64,000 nt of DNA from Candidatus Methanomethylophilaceae archaeon (GTDB taxonomy: Archaea > Thermoplasmatota > Thermoplasmata > Methanomassiliicoccales > Methanomethylophilaceae), in assembly GCA_050950505.1 (NCBI GenBank), contig JBMNHS010000001.1, positions 896,001 to 960,000 on the forward strand. The letters are read 5' to 3'. The position numbers were made by a program, and so were the translations under genes. The notes beneath the pieces were generated by a model. That model did not search any database, was not told where the DNA came from, and was given only the letters and a program-made list of their open reading frames with translations. Numbering within the stretch: position 1 is the stretch's first letter; every line of letters begins with the position of its first letter. This document shows, in pieces, positions 1,887 through 14,228 of this stretch.

Positions 1887-2608
1887 TGTTTGTCATCTCC
1901 GAATTTCGGATCGGAAATGAACCGTTCTTCAGCGCTTACGCTAAGATTATCCAACAATGTGAGTCGCAGGATCGACCCGGGGTTTGGATACCGCGGGGTT
2001 TTCTTAGCGTATGGGCCTTTACTTTACGGATTTTCTTTTATTTTATATCCGTATTTTTATCGAACGGCTCAATTCTGACCGAACTCAGATACCTGTGTGT
2101 TTTTGAAACGCCCAGGTATCAAGGCAGAATTTGCCACGTTCGGCATTATATAAATAATGTAGGATTTGGAGATTTTTTGTGAAAATCGGTCGATTCATGC
2201 GGCAAAATCAACCTAAAAAACATACAAAAGTTATTTTTCAATCAATAAAATATGTTCTTCAGACAATCCGATGCGGAACGTTTAATCTCGGAATCCTTGA
2301 AAATTTCGTTGAAACATAAACAAACAATCCAGCATACGTTGAATAATAAATATCTTTGAATTTCGGCATATCTTCGACTTTAGACGATATAATTCTCGGT
2401 CATTAAGCGGAAATATACGTAAACTCTGATGTATTTTCGTTATTCGTACAAATTTGAGAATCTGTGTAATCCGAGTTATTTTTACGTTAAATGCAGTAAA
2501 TACGCATATTATATACGAAATTCGTAGAATAGTTGGGTATATATACAATGAGTGCGTTAATAGAGATTGAGGTGAGACCCAATTTCAAAACGTAAAGACA
2601 CTAGGATC

Positions 2609-2760
2609 TGCGGCGAAGACATGAACGAGGCATTATGTTCGTTGGTAGAGAAATGGCCGGTCGGCACCTCTCGATGCGGATAAGCGAAATTCATGTCTGC
2701 AAGACCCGACTGATGACCGCAACAAACCCCCTGCCCTTTGGGGCAGGGATTTCTTTCTCT
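2609..2760 (+). ncRNA. putative structured RNA or IS200/IS605-end-like element upstream of cas3
   Basis: Nested stems TGCGG/CCGCA and AGACATGAA/TTCATGTCT, terminal 8-bp hairpin CCCTGCCC-TTTG-GGGCAGGG, then a pyrimidine run; TATA-like sequence at about 2538-2545. Confidence 0.35.
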
Positions 2761-2858
2761 CTGAACATTTCTCTCGGTTTACACATTCTGAGATTTTTAT
2801 CGTCTGTTTATATAGAGTTATACGCTACCGTTAAATGCAAACATATTGCTGAATCAGT

Positions 2859-5660
2859 ATGAACTCCGTCGGAGGGGATGTAAAGACCAATCGGGTTCCT
2901 TTTGATGATTTATCTGATATGAGTACATCATTGTGGGCAAAAGTTTCACAGACCGTCGGTGATGTAAGTTGGCTTCCTCTTGTTGCTCATATGCATGACG
3001 CGGGATACGTTTCGTAGTGTATTTGGAGAAGATGGCTTCCGGAGTCAACTAGAAAACTAATCGAAGATGGAATTTACACGGAGGACGGACATAAATTAAC
3101 TCCGGATGTGGTTGAACGGATTCTTAAATTCGTTTCAACAACACATGATATCGGAAAAGCCACCCCCGCTTTTCAGGGGAAAATGATTTTTCAAAATCCG
3201 GATGTTCAGATTGAATGCAGGAGAAGGTTAGACGCGTCCGGAATACCAATGAGGTATGACTTGGACAATCCGAACTTGATTCCACATTCATTTGCTTCGC
3301 AATATATCCTTGAAAGCAGAGGTATAGATCGAAGCGTTGCCTCTATTGTCGGTGGCCATCATGGCACATTTCCGAACAGAGATGAGTTTAGAAAAATAAG
3401 TTCATTTAAAAATCATACAGGCGTTGGGAACAAAAAATGGGATGACATTCACGACGAACTCTTGGGGTATTCACTTTATGTTTCAGAGTTGGATTATGAA
3501 TCCATTTCAAGTTTGAAAATTGCAGTTCATTCTCAGATATTGCTTACGGCCCTGGTGATAATGTCTGATTGGATATCAAGCAATGAGTATGATTTTCCTT
3601 ATGATGAGGAGTTCACTTATTCAAATTCAATTTTAAAAGAACGGGCCATCAAAGGATGGGACCGTCTCAGTATCCCATCTATTTGGACGCCGGACACCGA
3701 TGGTATTGTGGACATTCTTTATCAGAGTCGTTTCGGATTCAATCCCAGACCTTTTCAAAAATCCATTTTGGATATATTGAACAATATAAATTCCCCCGGA
3801 CTCATTATTTTAGAAGCACCGATGGGTGAAGGTAAGACCGAGGCTGCACTTGCGGCAGCTGAGATATTGGCAGATCGGTTTGGAAAAAGCGGGTTATTTT
3901 TCGCATTGCCGACACAGGCAACGTCTGATGGAATTTTTGACAGAGTCAAAAATTGGATGGAGAAAGCCGTGGGAAAATACAGCGATGAGAAGCACTCACT
4001 GTTTTTGGCGCATGGTAAATCCAGATTTAACGAATCATACACTTCATTGTATCAAAAGAAGTGGAACGTCGGTTCGACAAATGAAAATCACAATGGAAAC
4101 GTCATCGTTCACGATTGGTTCAATGGGAGAAAAAAAGGTATTCTTTCCGATGTTGTCGTGGGAACCGTTGATCAAATACTCATGGCAAGTTTAAAACAGA
4201 AACATCTTGTATTGAGGCATCTGGGACTTGCGAACAAAGTAGTGATAATCGACGAATGTCATGCATATGATACATACATGGGAAGTTACCTGGTAAAGAC
4301 ATTGAGGTGGCTGGGCGCATATAAAGTACCGGTGATCCTGTTATCTGCAACACTTCCCCCCAATATACGTTATGATTTTGTGAAAGGATACATGTTCTGT
4401 GGTACGAACAATGAGCCCGCGTCTCTCGATTGGGTTCATAATAAAAACTACCCCCTGTTGACTTATGCAGATTCAGAAGGGATATTTCAGAACGCTCCCG
4501 AGAGCTCGGGCCGCACAGTAAAAATCAATATCGAAAACATTTCTGATGAAGATATATTAGGGATTTTGGAAGATCACACTTCTGAGGGGGGATTTGTGGG
4601 CATAATATTAAACACAGTTAATCGAGCACAAGAATTATCTAAAAAGCTTTCAGATCGCTTCGGCGAAGAGCAGATTCAACTGATACATTCCCGTTTTACT
4701 AACATAGATCGTTCCGTGAAAGAAGCAAAACTTCTCGAAATTCTTGATAAAGGAAATCGATTATCTCCCGGAAATAGGTTATTTGTCATAGGTACGCAAG
4801 TAATAGAACAATCTCTCGATTTGGATTTTGATTTACTTATAACTGATTTATGTCCTATGGATCTCCTGATACAACGTATGGGAAGACTGCACAGACATAT
4901 TCGAAAAAGATCTGCGAAAATGCATCTTCCATTGTGTTATGTTTTGGACAATGGTAAAGGGGATTTCGAACCGGGCGCCGAGAGCGTTTACGGAAAATAT
5001 CACCTTATGAACTCGAGAGAATTGCTCAGGTTACGAAAAACTATCAATTTCCCTGATGAAATTCCTTTTTTGGTGCATGCGGCATACGACGTCAACGGAA
5101 TTCCCATGCCGGAGGCCCTCAGGGACGAATATGATTGCGCGCACAAAGAATTGGAACAAAAGATGATCGATAAAGAACGCAGAGCAAAGGTTTTCCAAAT
5201 CAAACATCCTGAAAAAACGAAAAATCTCATGGGTTGGACGGAGGGTTCGGGAAGTGATACTGAAAGGGCTGCACAGGCAACAGTCAGGGATGTAAACAGT
5301 TCTTTGGAAGTAATCGTTGTCCGAAAAGACGATGAAGGAAATTTTAGAATGATTTCATCTGTGTCGGAGGATGACGGTTCTGTGATTCCTTCAGATTCGG
5401 TTCCTGATGGAAAATTGGCCTTCAGGCTTGCAGGATGCAAAGTCTCTCTTCCCGGATTTCTGTCTGCAGATTGGAAAATAGATGAAACGATACGTTATCT
5501 CGAAATGAGAAACAGTAAAGAAATTCCCAAATGTTGGCAGGAATCGGAATGGCTGAACGGAGAATTATTCTTGTTGCTTGATAACAGCGGTATCACAACT
5601 GTTATATCATATTCACTGAGGTATGACACCAAGTTCGGGTTGATGATGGTTTATGAATGA
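2859..5660 (+). CDS. cas3: type I-E Cas3 HD nuclease/helicase with in-frame TAG at 3015-3017 (probable pyrrolysine read-through; alternative start 2919)
   Basis: The upstream frame encodes SLWAK...WLPLVAHMHDAGYVS*CIWRRWLP, continuous with the 3108 ORF (HDIGKATPAFQ, GGHHG, SDWISS, APMGEGKT, DECH, SAT, QRMGRLHRH). Confidence 0.93.
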
Positions 5661-7221
5661 TGTCGATTTCAATCTCCTGTACGAGCCGTGGATATCTGTA
5701 ATGGACTATGAAGGAAAAATTCTTCAAATGGGTATCATGGATACGTTGAATCAAGCTCATAAAATCAAATCATTGGCTGGGGAAACCCCGACACAGGATG
5801 TAACGATTATACGTTTATTACTGGCAATAATATCTGCAATTTATCTTCGGACGGACTCTGATGGGACAAAGGCCCATTTGACGGACGAAGAGGATGCCGT
5901 TGAAAGATGGGGTCGATTATGGGAAAGAAACCGATTTGATTCCGAACACGTTCAGCAGTATCTGGTTGGATTCGAAGACAGATTCTATTTGTTCCACCCC
6001 AAATTTCCCTTTTATCAATCTCCTATTGAAAAAGGTACAGAGTATACATCACCCAAACTCATCGGAGATCTTCTGGAAAGCAGTAATAAACTTCGATTGT
6101 TCAGTAACAGAAACGGTGCCGGCAAAGTCAAAATCTCTTACGCTGAGGCGGCACGCTGGATACTTCATCTGAACGCGTTCGATGACACCTCTGCAAAGCC
6201 TACGGTAAGGGGAGGCAATATGCCATCTCCGGGTGCAGGGTGGTTGGGCAAGTTAGGTCTTATATATGCGGAAGGAAAGAATCTCTTTGAAACTCTGATG
6301 CTGAATTTTGTAATGACCGATCATAATTATGATCCTTTTCCGGATGGAAAGGCCATATGGGAGTCCAGCCCCCGCATCGAGGAAAGGGTAATCATACCCA
6401 TGCCCGAAAGTCCGTTGGAAATAATGACATTACAATCCCGCAGAATATTGTTGAAGCGTGAAGAGGGTTTCGTAACAGGATATATTCTGATGGGCGGGGA
6501 CATAGTTGACAGAGAAAATGCTCTGATAGAGCAAATGACTGTGTGGAGAAAGGATAAAACGGGCGCATGGTTGCCTAAAAGACACGATCCATCCCGATTG
6601 ATGTGGAGGGATTTTTCCGCAATGATGTCAGGATTTGAAGATAATATAAAACCCGGCGTTGTAAGATGGATTTCTTCACTCGTAGCGGAAGACTTGCTTC
6701 CGGATGAATTTTTAACCTTCAGAATCACAGGAATAAAATACGGAGATAAGGATTTTTTTGCCGAAGACACGATAGACGACGGAATGGTATTCAATGCCGA
6801 ACTTCTGAGTTCTCTCGGAGAATCATGGATTCATAGAATTTCAAACCTGATAAAGAGAACAGAAGAATCCATCTATGCCTTCGGTACGTTCGCACGAAAT
6901 TTATCAATTGACAGCGGCAACGACGCGGAAGGTAAAAGTGCAAAAAATGCTTCCGCATCTGCAAGAGAAATGGCATATTTCCATTTGGATATGCCTTTCA
7001 GACGATGGCTTCAATCTATAAATCCCGTGTCTGATGATGAAGAGAGCCGGTTGAATGAGTGGACCGGGTTAGTATACTCTGTTTTGGTGGACAATCTCGG
7101 AAAACAATTACTTGAGGATGCAGGAGTCCAGGCCATGGTGGGCAGCAGTCTGCAAAACAATTCAATTTCCAGGTACAGACTGTTCAGAAACAGTGTTCGC
7201 AAGATTCTTAGAGGTGATTAA
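5653..7221 (+). CDS. cse1: type I-E Cascade large subunit Cas8e/Cse1
   Basis: FNLLYEPWI start, RFYLFHPKFPFYQ motif, position after cas3. Confidence 0.9.
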   Translation: MNDVDFNLLYEPWISVMDYEGKILQMGIMDTLNQAHKIKSLAGETPTQDVTIIRLLLAIISAIYLRTDSDGTKAHLTDEEDAVERWGRLWERNRFDSEHVQQYLVGFEDRFYLFHPKFPFYQSPIEKGTEYTSPKLIGDLLESSNKLRLFSNRNGAGKVKISYAEAARWILHLNAFDDTSAKPTVRGGNMPSPGAGWLGKLGLIYAEGKNLFETLMLNFVMTDHNYDPFPDGKAIWESSPRIEERVIIPMPESPLEIMTLQSRRILLKREEGFVTGYILMGGDIVDRENALIEQMTVWRKDKTGAWLPKRHDPSRLMWRDFSAMMSGFEDNIKPGVVRWISSLVAEDLLPDEFLTFRITGIKYGDKDFFAEDTIDDGMVFNAELLSSLGESWIHRISNLIKRTEESIYAFGTFARNLSIDSGNDAEGKSAKNASASAREMAYFHLDMPFRRWLQSINPVSDDEESRLNEWTGLVYSVLVDNLGKQLLEDAGVQAMVGSSLQNNSISRYRLFRNSVRKILRGD

Positions 7222-7222
7222 T

Positions 7223-7819
7223 TTGACAAAATCTGATATGATATATAATTTTGTTAATGAGAAGATAGGCATATTGCAAACGGGAAGTCCCTGGTCTAAA
7301 GCAATGTTGGCAAAATTAAGAAGAGGAGTGGGTAAGGAACCTTCAGAATCATACGAGACGTGGGAAATCACGTTAAACGGGATTCCTGAGGAGTTGACCG
7401 GTTTTGAAGGAGTCGGAGATTTTGAGGCCAATGAGGCAGAAATGGCAATACACGTGGCTTTGACGTTATACGCACTTCATCAACAAGGTAACTCATTGCC
7501 GGTGAATTCATACAATAAATCCTTTGCCGCATCCATAAGAAGTCTCATAAATACTGACAAGTCCAATGAGGATGCAATCAAAAGACGGTTTGACGCAATC
7601 ATCACATCCGATACCTTGATGGAATTATCAACTCATGCCAGAGGACTTGTTCAGTTGATGAAAGCATCGGAGAACACATCATTCAATTACCCCTTATTTG
7701 CAAAAGATCTCTATTTCTTCCAATATCCGGAAGGTAAAAAAACAGTTCGTTTGCGATGGGGGCTGGATTTTTATAAAGTACGTATGAACGAACCTATGAA
7801 AAAGGAGGAAGAAGAGTGA
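7223..7819 (+). CDS. cse2: type I-E Cascade small subunit Cas11/Cse2
   Basis: LAKLRRGVGK, ALTLYALHQQ, LFAKDLYFFQ...W motifs; TTG start at 7223 after SD GAGGTGA. Confidence 0.9.
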   Translation: MTKSDMIYNFVNEKIGILQTGSPWSKAMLAKLRRGVGKEPSESYETWEITLNGIPEELTGFEGVGDFEANEAEMAIHVALTLYALHQQGNSLPVNSYNKSFAASIRSLINTDKSNEDAIKRRFDAIITSDTLMELSTHARGLVQLMKASENTSFNYPLFAKDLYFFQYPEGKKTVRLRWGLDFYKVRMNEPMKKEEEE

Positions 7820-8922
7820 AAAACAGAATATTTGTAGATTTGCACGTTATTCAAACAGTACCGCCCAGTTGTGTGAACAGGGATGATACGGGAAGCCCCA
7901 AAACGGCTATGTACGGCGGAGTTCGCAGAGCCCGTGTTTCCTCTCAGAGCTGGAAAAAGGCAATCAGAGATCAGTTCAAGGAAGAATTTGACGAATCTGA
8001 GTTGGGAATACGCACCTTGAACGCAGTCGATGTGATTGCTGACAAAATACGTTCCATCGATACAGCCCTCTCCAAAGAAGAAGCGGTGGGGAAAGCAGCA
8101 GGCGTTCTTAGAGTCGCAGGTATTAAATTGGACACGAAGAAGAAAAAAGATACGGAGTCAGAAGAAAATCTCCGTACGGGAGCGTTATTTTTTATCAGTT
8201 CCAAACAGGCAGAGAATATGGCCGCTTTGGCGTTGACTGAGAACTATTCTAAAAAAGACGCACAAGAGGCGCTGAACAAAGGCAACGGAGTAGACATAGC
8301 TCTGTTCGGCAGAATGGTCGCCGACGATCCGTCATTGAATTCCGACGCATCAGCCCAAGTTGCTCATGCGATATCAACTCATAAGGTTGACACGGAATAC
8401 GATTATTTTACGGCAATAGATGATAGGTCTCCCGCAGACAACGCGGGTGCCGGAATGATCGGTACCGTTGAATTCAATTCTTCTACGCTATACCGGTACG
8501 CGACAGTTTCAGTTCATGACCTGTACAACAGATTGGAATGCAATAAAGAGATGACTTCGAAAGCCATAACCGAATTCATAAAAGCATTCATGCTCAGTAT
8601 GCCCACAGGAAAACAGAATACGTTTGCAAACAGAACGGTTCCCAATGCCGCTATAATCGCAATCAGAGACGATCAACCAATCAATCTCGTCAGCGCATTC
8701 GAATCTCCCGTAGGTACAAACAAATCCTCAATCGGGTACCTGGACGAATCAATAGACAGATTAATCAAAGAAAAGGAAGAAGCAACTTCTTCCTTTGTCA
8801 AGAAATCCAAGAAAACTTGGCAGATCGGAAAAGGTCTTGATGCATTGGGGCCTTCTGCTGATGTGGAAACCACCATTTCCGAAATAGAAGACTACCTCAA
8901 TGGGGAATTAGGTGAATGGTGA
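7816..8922 (+). CDS. cas7: type I-E Cascade backbone Cas7/Cse4
   Basis: PPSCVNRDDTGSPKTAMYGGVRRARVSSQSWK, DIALFGRMVA, PTGKQNTFA. Confidence 0.95.
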   Translation: MKNRIFVDLHVIQTVPPSCVNRDDTGSPKTAMYGGVRRARVSSQSWKKAIRDQFKEEFDESELGIRTLNAVDVIADKIRSIDTALSKEEAVGKAAGVLRVAGIKLDTKKKKDTESEENLRTGALFFISSKQAENMAALALTENYSKKDAQEALNKGNGVDIALFGRMVADDPSLNSDASAQVAHAISTHKVDTEYDYFTAIDDRSPADNAGAGMIGTVEFNSSTLYRYATVSVHDLYNRLECNKEMTSKAITEFIKAFMLSMPTGKQNTFANRTVPNAAIIAIRDDQPINLVSAFESPVGTNKSSIGYLDESIDRLIKEKEEATSSFVKKSKKTWQIGKGLDALGPSADVETTISEIEDYLNGELGEW

Positions 8923-9631
8923 CATTATTGTTGAGATTGGCCGGCCCTTTGCAATCCTGGGGGGTGGGTTCCAAGTTTGAAACCCGCACTACCTCGAAAG
9001 CACCCTCAAAGAGCGGAGTCTTGGGAATGGTCGCTTCTGCAATGGGACGCGACAGAGAAGATTCTCTCGATGATTTGGCATCTTTGAAATTCGGAGTGCG
9101 GATAGATCAGGAAGGAACGATTTTAAAGGATTTTCACACAGCGCACAGCGCGAGTCGCAAGACGGCATACGTGACAAACAGACATTATCTCGAAAATGGG
9201 TGTTTTTTAGTAGGCCTTGAAGGTGATGAAACATTACTGTTTAGAATCGAAGATGCGATAAAAAATCCCTTTTATCCTCTTTACCTGGGACGCAGGTCTT
9301 GTCCACCTACGGGCAGAATGATTTTGGGATTCAGAGACAAAGTGCTGTATGAAGCACTGAGGGATGAGCCGTGGTTGGCGTCAGAGTGGTATCGAAAACG
9401 GACTCCCTCCAATGTAATGTTGGAGATTGTATGCGAAGATGATTCCGATTTATTTTCGGAATCTGTCCGGGATGTGCCCCTCAGTTTTAGCCAAACCAGA
9501 AGAAAGCATGGTTTCAGGAATGTAAGAAGAGTTCTTGACGGAAAGACAATCGAAAATTCCGATTCCGGAATCAAAAAACCCATGAATGCACAATTCGATC
9601 CAATGTTCGAAGTAAAGAAGGAGGTTCGTTA

Positions 9632-9632
<1 letters not shown>
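8916..9632 (+). CDS. cas5: type I-E Cas5
   Basis: LRLAGPLQSWG, PSKSGVLG, LYLGRRSCPP. Confidence 0.95.
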
Positions 9633-12047
<2,415 letters not shown>

Positions 12048-12133: not shown

Positions 12134-14228
12134 GTGGTCCCCGCGAAAGCGGGGGTGATCCTCATTCATGAAGCCTATCAGACGAAAACTCGGTGGTCCC
12201 CGCGAAAGCGGGGGTGATCCTATGAGAGACAGATAGAGATTATCGACAGGTGTGGTCCCCGCGAAAGCGGGGGTGATCCCCATGTTCATTGACACGCCAA
12301 TCGCAACAAGAAGTGGTCCCCGCGAAAGCGGGGGTGATCCTATTCTCCAACGACATCTTATCAGTTGCTATTCTAGTGGTCCCCGCGAAAGCGGGGGTGA
12401 TCCTCTCAGGCAACGTCACTTGTGGTATCCGACGTGTGGTCCCCGCGAAAGCGGGGGTGATCCTGGTAAGGTTCTTTTTCGTCCTCAAGTAGCACGTGGT
12501 CCCCGCGAAAGCGGGGGTGATCCTACGTAGCAACCATATGTTACGGGATGATATCCTTTGTGGTCCCCGCGAAAGCGGGGGTGATCCTCGGGTACATATC
12601 GTTCCTGATTATCTGGTTGAGTGGTCCCCGCGAAAGCGGGGGTGATCCTCAGGTGTAGATTCTGGACGGCTATAATCAGTGTGGTCCCCGCGAAAGCGGG
12701 GGTGATCCTCAGCACTGATTACAGCGAGAATGTCATACTAGTGGTCCCCGCGAAAGCGGGGGTGATCCTAGGTCCAGAACGACTTTTAAGACGTCTAATA
12801 GGGTGGTCCCCGCGAAAGCGGGGGTGATCCTAGTCCTTGACCGTCAGATATCAACATGTAGGTGGTCCCCGCGAAAGCGGGGGTGATCCTGAGAACTCGC
12901 AGCCGTCAACCGAGGAGGAGTGGTCCCCGCGAAAGCGGGGGTGATCCTATCAATAAGACTGTCCTATTATGTCGAATCGGGTGGTCCCCGCGAAAGCGGG
13001 GGTGATCCCCTCATCGTATGATCATCGAACTTCCACGGTGGTCCCCGCGAAAGCGGGGGTGATCCTGCAGCTGGTCAAGCACGATATAGGAAATGGTGGT
13101 CCCCGCGAAAGCGGGGGTGATCCTCTGTGATCTTCAACCGTTCCAAGTACCTCATTCTTTAAGTGGTCCCCGCGAAAGCGGGGGTGATCCTCGTCTAGAC
13201 TTCGCACTCTCGGTCAAGTCGGTGGTCCCCGCGAAAGCGGGGGTGATCCTACTTACATGTCTGCCGGAAATGATCGGTGCAATGACATGCGTGGTCCCCG
13301 CGAAAGCGGGGGTGATCCTAGATATGACTTAATTGATCTCATGTAATCAGTGGTCCCCGCGAAAGCGGGGGTGATCCCATACCCATGCGTCTTTATCGCG
13401 GAGTCTGGTGGTCCCCGCGAAAGCGGGGGTGATCCTGAGGCAACCAATAGCAATTAAGGGTCAGGTCGGTGGTCCCCGCGAAAGCGGGGGTGATCCTACT
13501 TGACCAAAGACGGTTCAGGATGCCGATTGGTGGTCCCCGCGAAAGCGGGGGTGATCCTGACCACCTACACCACAACCCAGATATCTGATGGTGGTCCCCG
13601 CGAAAGCGGGGGTGATCCCTTGGTCAAATCGACGGCGAATTTTGTCGGCTCGTGGTCCCCGCGAAAGCGGGGGTGATCCTACTTGCAGGCTATTAGCCGT
13701 GTAATGTCGGGCGTGGTCCCCGCGAAAGCGGGGGTGATCCCTCAGTAGGATAGTCAAGGCGACTGACGGCGTAGTGGTCCCCGCGAAAGCGGGGGTGATC
13801 CCGCATACCGCGAACGCAGGCTGGGGAGAACTGGGTGGTCCCCGCGAAAGCGGGGGTGATCCTATCCCGATAACGATTAGAGACAGGGAAATCAAGTGGT
13901 CCCCGCGAAAGCGGGGGTGATCCTTATATGCATATCTTGTAATATCTCTGTATGCCGTGGTCCCCGCGAAAGCGGGGGTGATTCTTGCTTGTAGAGTCCG
14001 CCGAGTTTTTTCATGTGGTGGTCCCCGCGAAAGCGGGGGTGATCCTCTGCCCTGTGGGTGCGCTTATCGATGAACCCTGTGGTCCCCGCAAAAGCGGGGG
14101 TGATCCCGGATTTATTGTTTTTGCTACTGTGTACAGTATGTGGTCCCCGCGAAAGCGGGGGTGATCCTGGGAGTATGAGTTGGAAAAACACCTAGCACCG
14201 GTGGTCCCCGCGAAAGCGGGGGTGATTC
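12134..14228 (+). CRISPR. type I-E CRISPR array, 35 repeats and 34 spacers, repeat GTGGTCCCCGCGAAAGCGGGGGTGATCC followed by T or C
   Basis: 28-nt hairpin repeat (CCCCGC-GAAA-GCGGGG) counted manually from 12134 to 14201; variants at repeats 31, 33 and 35. Confidence 0.99.

Follow-up and report, generated by a model that had tools for sequence, protein, structure and literature searches.

An in-frame amber codon, probably read as pyrrolysine, in a type I-E cas3 gene of a Methanomethylophilaceae archaeon

We analyzed a stretch of 64,000 nucleotides (nt) from the genome of a Candidatus Methanomethylophilaceae archaeon (NCBI GenBank assembly GCA_050950505.1, contig JBMNHS010000001.1, positions 896,001 to 960,000 of the forward strand; hereafter the window), in which the cas3 gene of a type I-E CRISPR system is broken by one in-frame TAG codon. 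It is likely that this cas3 is intact, with UAG read as pyrrolysine (Pyl) by genome-wide recoding and the TAG tolerated at a variable site, and that no dedicated regulatory device is involved. An earlier interpretation of the window made from its letters only (the sequence-only reading) had placed an amber codon in the HD nuclease domain of Cas3, with the rest of the gene and all other cas genes intact, and had proposed that CRISPR immunity is gated by Pyl; the first of these claims is confirmed by translation, domain matches and independent contigs, and the second is weighed below.

A Cas3 HD domain complete only with TAG read-through

In the window sequence, the ATG at 2859-2861 and the TAG at 3015-3017 share a frame with the open reading frame (ORF) that translation table 11 places at 3108-5660, and translation of 2859-5660 with TAG read as Pyl (O) yields 933 residues, with O53 as the sole non-standard step and no further stop. 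The peptide quoted in the sequence-only reading, SLWAKVSQTVGDVSWLPLVAHMHDAGYVS-TAG-CIWRRWLPESTRKLI, matches the sequence exactly. The elements of the gene are as follows.

2807-2814, plus strand: TATA-box-like motif TTTATATA, about 45 nt upstream of ATG 2859, a putative cas3 promoter placed for the long form
2859-5660, plus strand: full-length type I-E cas3, 933 codons plus stop, with HD nuclease, SF2 helicase and Cas3 C-terminal domain
2988-2999, plus strand: HD motif I, His44-Met-His-Asp47, upstream of the TAG, assigned by structure alignment
3015-3017, plus strand: in-frame TAG, codon 53, putatively read as pyrrolysine (translation; kept in independent contigs; same aligned codon in a second species)
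3108-3110, plus strand: GTG (Val84), the first possible start past the TAG and the start of the truncated 850-residue standard-code ORF
3144-3149, plus strand: HD motif II, His96-Asp97 (THDIGK), from the translation, pairing with "hdigk" of solved Cas3 proteins

The motif TTTATATA is presumably an archaeal TATA box, an assignment made from the consensus. The TAG follows the first HD-domain His by nine codons; in alignments to PDB structures, this residue, His44, lines up with the His in the "CHMLD" of 4q2c and in the "CHSLD" of 6c66 and 4qqw, and a GGHHG motif is visible in the translation beside H44/D47 and H96-D97. Pfam Cas3_HD (PF18019) covers residues 26-245 in one stretch that spans the TAG (E = 2.1e-39), NCBIfam cas3_HD (TIGR01596) covers residues 41-242, and the HD domain is complete only with read-through. 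The helicase and C-terminal parts match PF00270 (DEAD), PF04851 (ResIII), PF22590 (Cas3-like_C_2) and PF18395 (Cas3_C), the cas3_core model TIGR01587 scores 238 bits against a cut-off of 102, and the best solved relative is PDB 4q2c_A, to which residues 26-929 align with E = 1.4e-110. By these matches, the gene at 2859-5660 is a type I-E Cas3 with an HD nuclease fused to an SF2 helicase, whose activity is predicted. A split Cas3 (Cas3'' plus Cas3') was considered and rejected, as the break would fall within the HD domain, past motif I.

Between the TAG and the GTG at 3108 there is no in-frame ATG, GTG or TTG; residues 54-83 of Cas3 are therefore unmakeable without read-through, and the sequence-only reading was right that full-length Cas3 needs it. 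A product restarted at Val84 would lack residues 1-83, including His44 and Asp47 of motif I, and would retain His96-Asp97. The further claim that such a restart loses nuclease activity is borne out as far as the loss of motif I is concerned, the His of this motif being a metal ligand. The 850-residue form is the one present in the public protein set (P0002).

The TAG codon is present in independent metagenomes

The TAG in cas3 is real and not an assembly error. Many metagenomes of digesters, bioreactors, landfills and wastewater contain the stretch 2600-3600: at least half of the sampled words were found in 14 rows, and 20 rows from 12 studies have the whole or part of it. Contigs compared from three non-source DNA runs of three studies (X4, X5 and X7) all span 3015-3017 and show no difference there. 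In two of these runs (X5 and X7) the contigs stem from a strain variant, which differs by G3014A, a synonymous change (TCG to TCA) in the codon that precedes the TAG, by G3044T (Glu to Asp) and at other sites, and the TAG is likewise kept in both Joint Genome Institute (JGI) metagenome contigs that cover it, one identical to the window (L065) and the other carrying the TCA-TAG variant (L064). A scan of metagenomes for related loci gave only three near-identical contigs, and a search for related loci among genome contigs returned no relative.

A single-base error, a doubt that the sequence-only reading had itself raised, could in principle turn TCG, TGG, TTG, CAG, AAG, GAG or TAY into TAG, and no actual support for one was found. 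The agreement of three runs of three studies and two JGI contigs, including variants at neighboring bases, refutes a sequencing or assembly error at 3015-3017, and the presence of the upstream 52-residue ORF on 14 contigs argues against it as well; its probability is negligible.

Conservation of the TAG and selection on both flanks

We searched for relatives in 61 related genomes and then in 174 genomes of the family. In a second species of the same genus (G009; the window genome is G000), Cas3 is 60% identical and also contains one in-frame TAG, and in the codon alignment the TAGs of the two genomes fall in the same column. Conserved residues around the TAG use different synonymous codons in the two genomes, for example TTG/CTT, AGT/TCA and CTT/TTG. 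By Nei-Gojobori proportions calculated between the two genes, synonymous differences (pS) are saturated over the whole of cas3 (0.77-0.90), and nonsynonymous differences (pN) amount to 0.325 for residues 22-52, just upstream of the TAG, 0.324 for residues 54-83, from the TAG to the first possible restart, and 0.25-0.28 for the rest of the gene. Both flanks of the TAG have thus been kept as protein in frame over a long divergence, and translation through the TAG is required. A recent nonsense mutation, which the sequence-only reading had offered as the alternative, is ruled out by the TAG in this 60% identical protein, the saturated pS, and a pN well under pS to either side of the codon.

The second species has the I-E operon in full and a CRISPR array, collinear with those of the window, and the flanking genes are not common to both genomes. 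A core membrane protein of the UbiA family, similar to digeranylgeranylglyceryl phosphate synthase (DGGGPS-like), is 61% identical between them, which places the divergence of Cas3 within the range of vertical divergence; the I-E locus may have been transferred within the genus.

Pyrrolysine machinery and genome-wide use of TAG

The genome (1.33 Mb in two contigs, 49% GC, mcrA present) carries a pyl cluster at C1:4851-8552. Each gene was tested against its own NCBIfam cut-off, and all scored above it: pylS 267, pylB 438, pylC 315 and pylD 217 bits. PylS has 274 residues and matches short pyrrolysyl-tRNA synthetase (PylRS) structures end to end (E = 4e-107). Directly upstream of pylS, we located by eye and by folding a candidate tRNA-Pyl, a 71-nt cloverleaf (L001 2337-2407, minus strand) whose acceptor stem has 7 bp, whose D loop is small and whose anticodon stem is interrupted; its anticodon, CUA, lies in the loop CUCUAGA, and the CCA end is encoded. 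The Pyl genes that the sequence-only reading presupposed are therefore found in this genome, together with a CUA tRNA candidate.

TAG is rare as a terminator: among 1057 non-overlapping ORFs of at least 120 residues, 765 end in TGA, 259 in TAA and 33 (3.1%) in TAG, and several of these 33 are upstream halves of read-through genes. A codon-score survey for internal TAGs, which missed cas3 itself, produced 42 candidate rows, from which 15 were picked by eye for Pfam searches; five of the 15 gave no Pfam match. The genes retained are listed here.

mtmB (MtmB): TAG inside the Pfam domain match
mtbB (Dimeth_Pyl, MtbB): TAG inside the Pfam domain match
mttB (MTTB): TAG inside the Pfam domain match
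C1:626552-627397, minus strand: UbiA-family DGGGPS-like gene, TAG at codon 85, domain at residues 18-270 (L049/L062)
C1:223352-224713, minus strand: AAA_14-DUF4143 ATPase, two TAGs inside DUF4143 (L046)
C1:255191-257419, plus strand: KAP NTPase, TAG inside the Pfam domain match (L047)
C1:1138060-1140903, minus strand: PLD-ResIII-Helicase_C-DUF3427 gene, TAG between the helicase lobes, inside a SWI2_SNF2 match (L051)
Fe-S protein: TAG upstream of the Fer4 and NCBIfam matches, the upstream half backed by codon score only

Besides cas3, five non-methyltransferase genes thus hold internal TAGs, and in four of them the TAG lies inside or between Pfam domain matches. An M16 peptidase and DHQS were rejected as internal-TAG genes, the TAG preceding the true start in each. 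The internal TAGs of the genome seem concentrated in defence-type and accessory genes.

Archaea need DGGGP synthase to make their membrane lipids. For the UbiA gene, the top-scoring models are those of geranylgeranylglycerol-phosphate geranylgeranyltransferase, with scores below the cut-offs, and the sole other UbiA-family gene in the genome is MenA-like. DGGGPS-like genes occur in 163 of the 174 family genomes and in 88 of the 90 high-quality ones. Since the only such gene here carries an in-frame TAG and the gene is widespread in the family, decoding of TAG cannot be optional and must be constitutive. DGGGPS-like orthologues with TAGs were also seen in G007 (82% identical), G080 and G183, and most other family members have the gene without one.

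Internal TAG codons in cas3 genes of the family

We aligned 16 type I-E cas3 orthologues of the family, each taken as its longest frame bounded by TAA or TGA, 15 of which are full length. Five of the 16 hold seven internal TAGs at six alignment columns, all within conserved blocks: column 97 (G000 and G009), columns 113 and 164 (G090), columns 162 and 648 (G144) and column 949 (G160). With frames bounded in this way, no full-length frame contains an internal TAA or TGA, and on these alignments the TAG-only pattern is that expected of a sense codon and not of random gene decay. More distant cas3 genes with TAG at other positions also exist among the genomes searched here (e.g., L042). In the orthologue L035 (G082:C1:527611-529959), the longest frame is without about 110 N-terminal residues, including HD motif I; this may be a truly truncated or frameshifted copy, unlike the TAG-only interruptions elsewhere.

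The column that holds the TAG in the two species is variable in 13 other orthologues (Ser in four, Glu in three, Val and Gly in two each, Thr and Arg in one each), and bacterial Cas3 proteins of solved structure have Leu there. Of 232 columns that vary to the same degree, 74 (32%) show the same residue in both species, which makes retention of the TAG in this pair unremarkable, and the differing positions of the TAGs across orthologues look like drift under a recoded codon. As a rough density, there are six TAG gains in about 14,900 cas3 codons compared with at least five TAGs in about 46,000 DGGGPS-like codons, counts that are not phylogenetically independent, have 22 DGGGPS-like matches outside them and support no statistical claim; the few-fold excess of TAGs in cas3 is in keeping with an accessory gene being less constrained.

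Public proteins extend the comparison. All six hits of at least 57% identity cover just 75-93% of the Cas3 query, and five are cut at the N-terminus. The called starts of P0005 (59%) and P0010 (57%) read "MPFST", seven codons past the TAG position; P0010, starting early in this way, is missing sequence at its C-terminus. Among full-length hits the best, P0007 (50% identical), has Cys where the TAG lies, and coverage of the query is 94-100% for most of the more distant hits, the exceptions being P0029 (92%) and P0110 (87%). The pattern suggests that further lineages, too, have a stop at this codon or close to it, with the stop codons of P0005 and P0010 deduced from the called starts. A search with the 52-residue N-terminal fragment for small ORFs ending at the same stop returned only the peptide of the window itself.

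Outside the archaeal family, the nearest full-length relatives of Cas3 are bacterial, from Cloacimonetes, Syntrophomonadaceae and Clostridiales sources, at 41-48% identity. These similarities fit a scenario in which anaerobic bacteria living alongside supplied the I-E system and the TAG arose later.

The type I-E locus and its surroundings

Downstream of cas3, the genes from cse1 to cas2 are all open under table 11 and are followed by the array.

5653-7221, plus strand: cse1/cas8e (PF09481, E = 1.4e-93)
7112-7819, plus strand: cse2, ORF as listed with the true start probably later (PF09485, residues 66-221)
7816-8922, plus strand: cas7, CT1975-like (PF09344, E = 6e-118)
8916-9632, plus strand: cas5 (PF09704)
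9632-10285, plus strand: cas6e (PF08798)
10282-11250, plus strand: cas1 (PF01867)
11247-12047, plus strand: cas2e with a C-terminal extension of about 180 residues (PF09707, residues 1-84; TIGR01873, residues 1-83)
12134-14228, plus strand: CRISPR array, 35 repeats of 28 nt at a spacing of about 61 nt

In the array, 32 of the 35 repeats share one sequence, and the other three are variants found at the end away from the cas genes; the 35 matches compare with none expected from shuffles. Cas2e has 266 residues, of which the C-terminal 180 or so have no Pfam or NCBIfam match, and this extension is weakly conserved in the second species (tblastx, 35% over 11775-11981).

Upstream of cas3, a 36-nt block at 2694-2729 is found in other metagenome contigs between unrelated flanks (loose ends at 2694 and 2729). 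It is single-copy in the genome and is followed by a GC-rich hairpin at about 2728-2749 and a T-rich run. The sole contig from an RNA library covers exactly the region 2675-2864, in which an Rfam search found no match. Candidate identities for this region are an island boundary, a terminator and a small RNA.

Interpretation of the amber codon and its alternatives

According to the explanation that we favor, a constitutive pair of PylRS and tRNA-Pyl(CUA), together with PylBCD, would decode UAG as Pyl essentially genome-wide in this small-genome methylotrophic methanogen, and the ribosome would read codon 53 as Pyl to give the 933-residue nuclease-helicase. The TAG would have arisen by mutation at a structurally tolerant, variable position after HD motif I, following the entry of an originally bacterial-type I-E system into a TAG-recoded lineage, and would then have been inherited by at least two species as one of several internal TAGs accumulating in weakly constrained accessory and defence genes. 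That Pyl is the residue inserted at codon 53, that read-through is efficient and that the protein is active are points that we infer from the sequence.

Several observations weigh against this explanation. This cas3 is found in just two of the 15 genomes of the genus, and the conservation of the TAG rests on one directly observed pair. The sole RNA contig (X15, 190 nt; 2675-2864) lies upstream of the cas3 coding region and is uninformative on its expression. Neither ARAGORN, run on the genome and on the pylS locus, nor Rfam, run on the pylS locus, calls a tRNA-Pyl, and the fold of our candidate is no more stable than shuffles (z = -0.10); the miss by both programs fits the unusual tRNA-Pyl of this order, and automated annotation would report no suppressor tRNA in this genome. 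Termination at TAG is also apparent in places. In an ORF set that is crude and was made without a gene finder, nine of the 33 TAG-ending ORFs would, if read through, overlap a neighbor out of frame by more than 60 nt, and one of these is a genuine read-through gene, which leaves up to eight. Among these is the pylB gene itself (C1:6786-7835, minus strand), which ends in TAG and, if read through, would gain 29 residues and run for 89 nt into pylC out of frame; the rest are putative ORFs. UAG termination may therefore compete with Pyl insertion at some sites, and the genome may be incompletely recoded; alternatively, PylB may be made with the 29-residue extension.

Such competition is what a dosage throttle or conditional gate would exploit, in which UAG-53 is read only in part, or only when Pyl-tRNA is abundant during growth on methylamines, so that Cas3 and interference are tuned by Pyl status; this is a milder version of the gating put forward in the sequence-only reading. 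In its favor, a release factor may compete at UAG in view of the genes that appear to terminate at TAG (pylB and others), the TAG lies early in cas3, at codon 53, where termination would be cheap, and a non-recoded Pyl archaeon and a bacterium do turn their Pyl system off (Kivenson et al., 2024; bioRxiv 10.1101/2024.09.30.615893). We nonetheless consider it unlikely. The only DGGGPS-like lipid-synthesis gene needs read-through of its TAG and, together with the use of TAG as terminator in at most 3.1% of long ORFs, argues for constitutive, efficient decoding. A PYLIS-like structure is absent after the cas3 TAG, the 120 nt from the codon folding no better than shuffles (z = -0.18), and other cas3 orthologues carry TAG elsewhere or not at all, which leaves no conserved regulatory site across the family. 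The rarity of TAG terminators (33 of 1057) and the TAG in a core gene thus point to constitutive decoding with no switch specific to cas3, and with the codon at a variable, non-catalytic site, the proposal of the sequence-only reading that immunity is tied to methylamine status is not supported. Were cas3 instead a pseudogene, the nonsense TAG would prevent full-length Cas3 from being made, and the locus would be decaying or keeping only adaptation and Cascade binding. The standard code does truncate the gene, public protein sets hold only the 850-residue form, and the family orthologue L035 is without its N-terminal part; this explanation is extremely unlikely given the same TAG in a 60% identical Cas3, in a comparison where synonymous sites are saturated and each flank shows pN well under pS, the freedom of cas3 from frameshifts, TAA and TGA, the conservation of residues 54-83 that no restart can reach, the 32 of 35 identical array repeats, and the fact that all seven internal stops in the 16 orthologues are TAG.

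The same conservation could be taken to mean that Pyl was selected, with the residue beside HD motif I aiding Cas3 function or serving as a lock that ties the locus to hosts able to decode Pyl. Two species retain the TAG despite saturated synonymous sites; the "MPFST" starts of P0005 and P0010 are as expected with a stop just upstream, and all six closest hits are incomplete, the best full-length one being only 50% identical. The aligned site is, on the other hand, variable in 13 orthologues and Leu in the solved structures, the 32% sharing at equally variable columns makes retention in one pair unremarkable, and the two stop codons are deduced only, which makes selection for Pyl very unlikely. 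A wider form of the idea, also improbable, is that the codon is selectively maintained in a whole clade of archaeal I-E Cas3 (the two species and at least two implied lineages), aiding nuclease function or acting as a lock or throttle that keeps a bacterial-type CRISPR system within hosts able to decode Pyl; if true, the site would join a very small number of conserved Pyl sites not in methylamine methyltransferases.

Relation to known systems and implications

Amber-containing cas3 and cas1 genes have been published, and the phenomenon itself is known. A Cas3 gene is among the 46 amber-containing genes of ISO4-H5 (Li et al., 2016; PMC5011839), and this gene (AR505_1089) resembles the present one as a cas3 from a rumen or digester member of the Methanomassiliicoccales in which TAG is the sole interruption, the genome having pylTSBCD and amber codons in dozens of genes; that paper gives neither the TAG position nor a conservation analysis, and the TAG column of the window is common to G000 and G009 only. 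In Ca. M. alvus, 16 non-methyltransferase Pyl proteins were predicted, among them Cas1, as the sequence-only reading had correctly remembered, and DGGGP synthase; the same study reported 1.6% TAG terminators and favored the view that Pyl is expressed constitutively and that new amber codons become stably fixed (Borrel, 2014; PMC4153887). More recently, Genetic Code 34 was proposed for such archaea, 12 of the 15 Pyl proteins expressed in M. alvi were shown by mass spectrometry to contain Pyl, with no residue but Pyl found at TAG, and targeted proteomics detected Pyl in Cas1 (Kivenson et al., 2024; 10.1101/2024.09.30.615893). That preprint lists Pyl in Cas2, Cas4, Cas8e and Cas10 (the present cas3 lineage may be among the Pyl Cas proteins of its supplementary Table S12), cites the earlier Cas1 and Cas3 predictions, and finds the incidence of Pyl in Cas proteins not notably different from random mutation, pointing to neutral accumulation and not selected enrichment. 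The Cas1 of Ca. M. alvus/alvi is thus, like our Cas3, a Cas protein with an internal TAG in a Genetic Code 34 archaeon, and differs in being another Cas protein from another CRISPR type, with Pyl proven by proteomics, whereas the present cas3 is known from sequence.

A precedent for tying Pyl-protein synthesis to methylamine supply would be Acetohalobium arabaticum, in which TAG makes up 20-30% of terminators, compared with 3.1% here (Borrel, 2014; PMC4153887). Set against conditional decoding of that kind, the low share of TAG terminators and the TAG inside the UbiA domain of the sole DGGGPS-like gene amount to the opposite strategy. Our literature searches joining pyrrolysine to Cas3, or to CRISPR plus Methanomassiliicoccales, which covered papers with supplementary tables outside their reach, found none proposing Pyl-dependent control of CRISPR immunity, and a search on "genetic code 34" with pyrrolysine found only the Kivenson preprint.

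The bacterial type I-E systems share with this locus the operon layout cse1-cse2-cas7-cas5-cas6e-cas1-cas2 and 28-nt repeats, and their Cas3 proteins (PDB 4q2c, 4qqw and 6c66) share the domain order of HD, two RecA-like domains and C-terminal domain, but have Leu at the TAG site. The hosts of these three structures use the standard code.

What is modestly new is a non-methyltransferase Pyl codon conserved across two species and several natural populations, the latter supported by several metagenomes of digesters, bioreactors and landfills, and the repeated, independent appearance of TAGs in cas3 within the family. Under the standard code, the gene is annotated as an 850-residue cas3 without the first HD motif and the locus would be scored as defective, whereas with TAG as Pyl it is intact; the same annotation issue affects the lipid-synthesis gene and several defence genes of this genome. 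It follows, as the sequence-only reading had proposed for this locus, that amber-containing genes such as these would be non-functional after transfer to hosts without Pyl machinery. Taken together, this cas3 adds a well-documented case of TAG as a sense codon in Methanomethylophilaceae-like methanogens, with internal TAGs accumulating in accessory genes.

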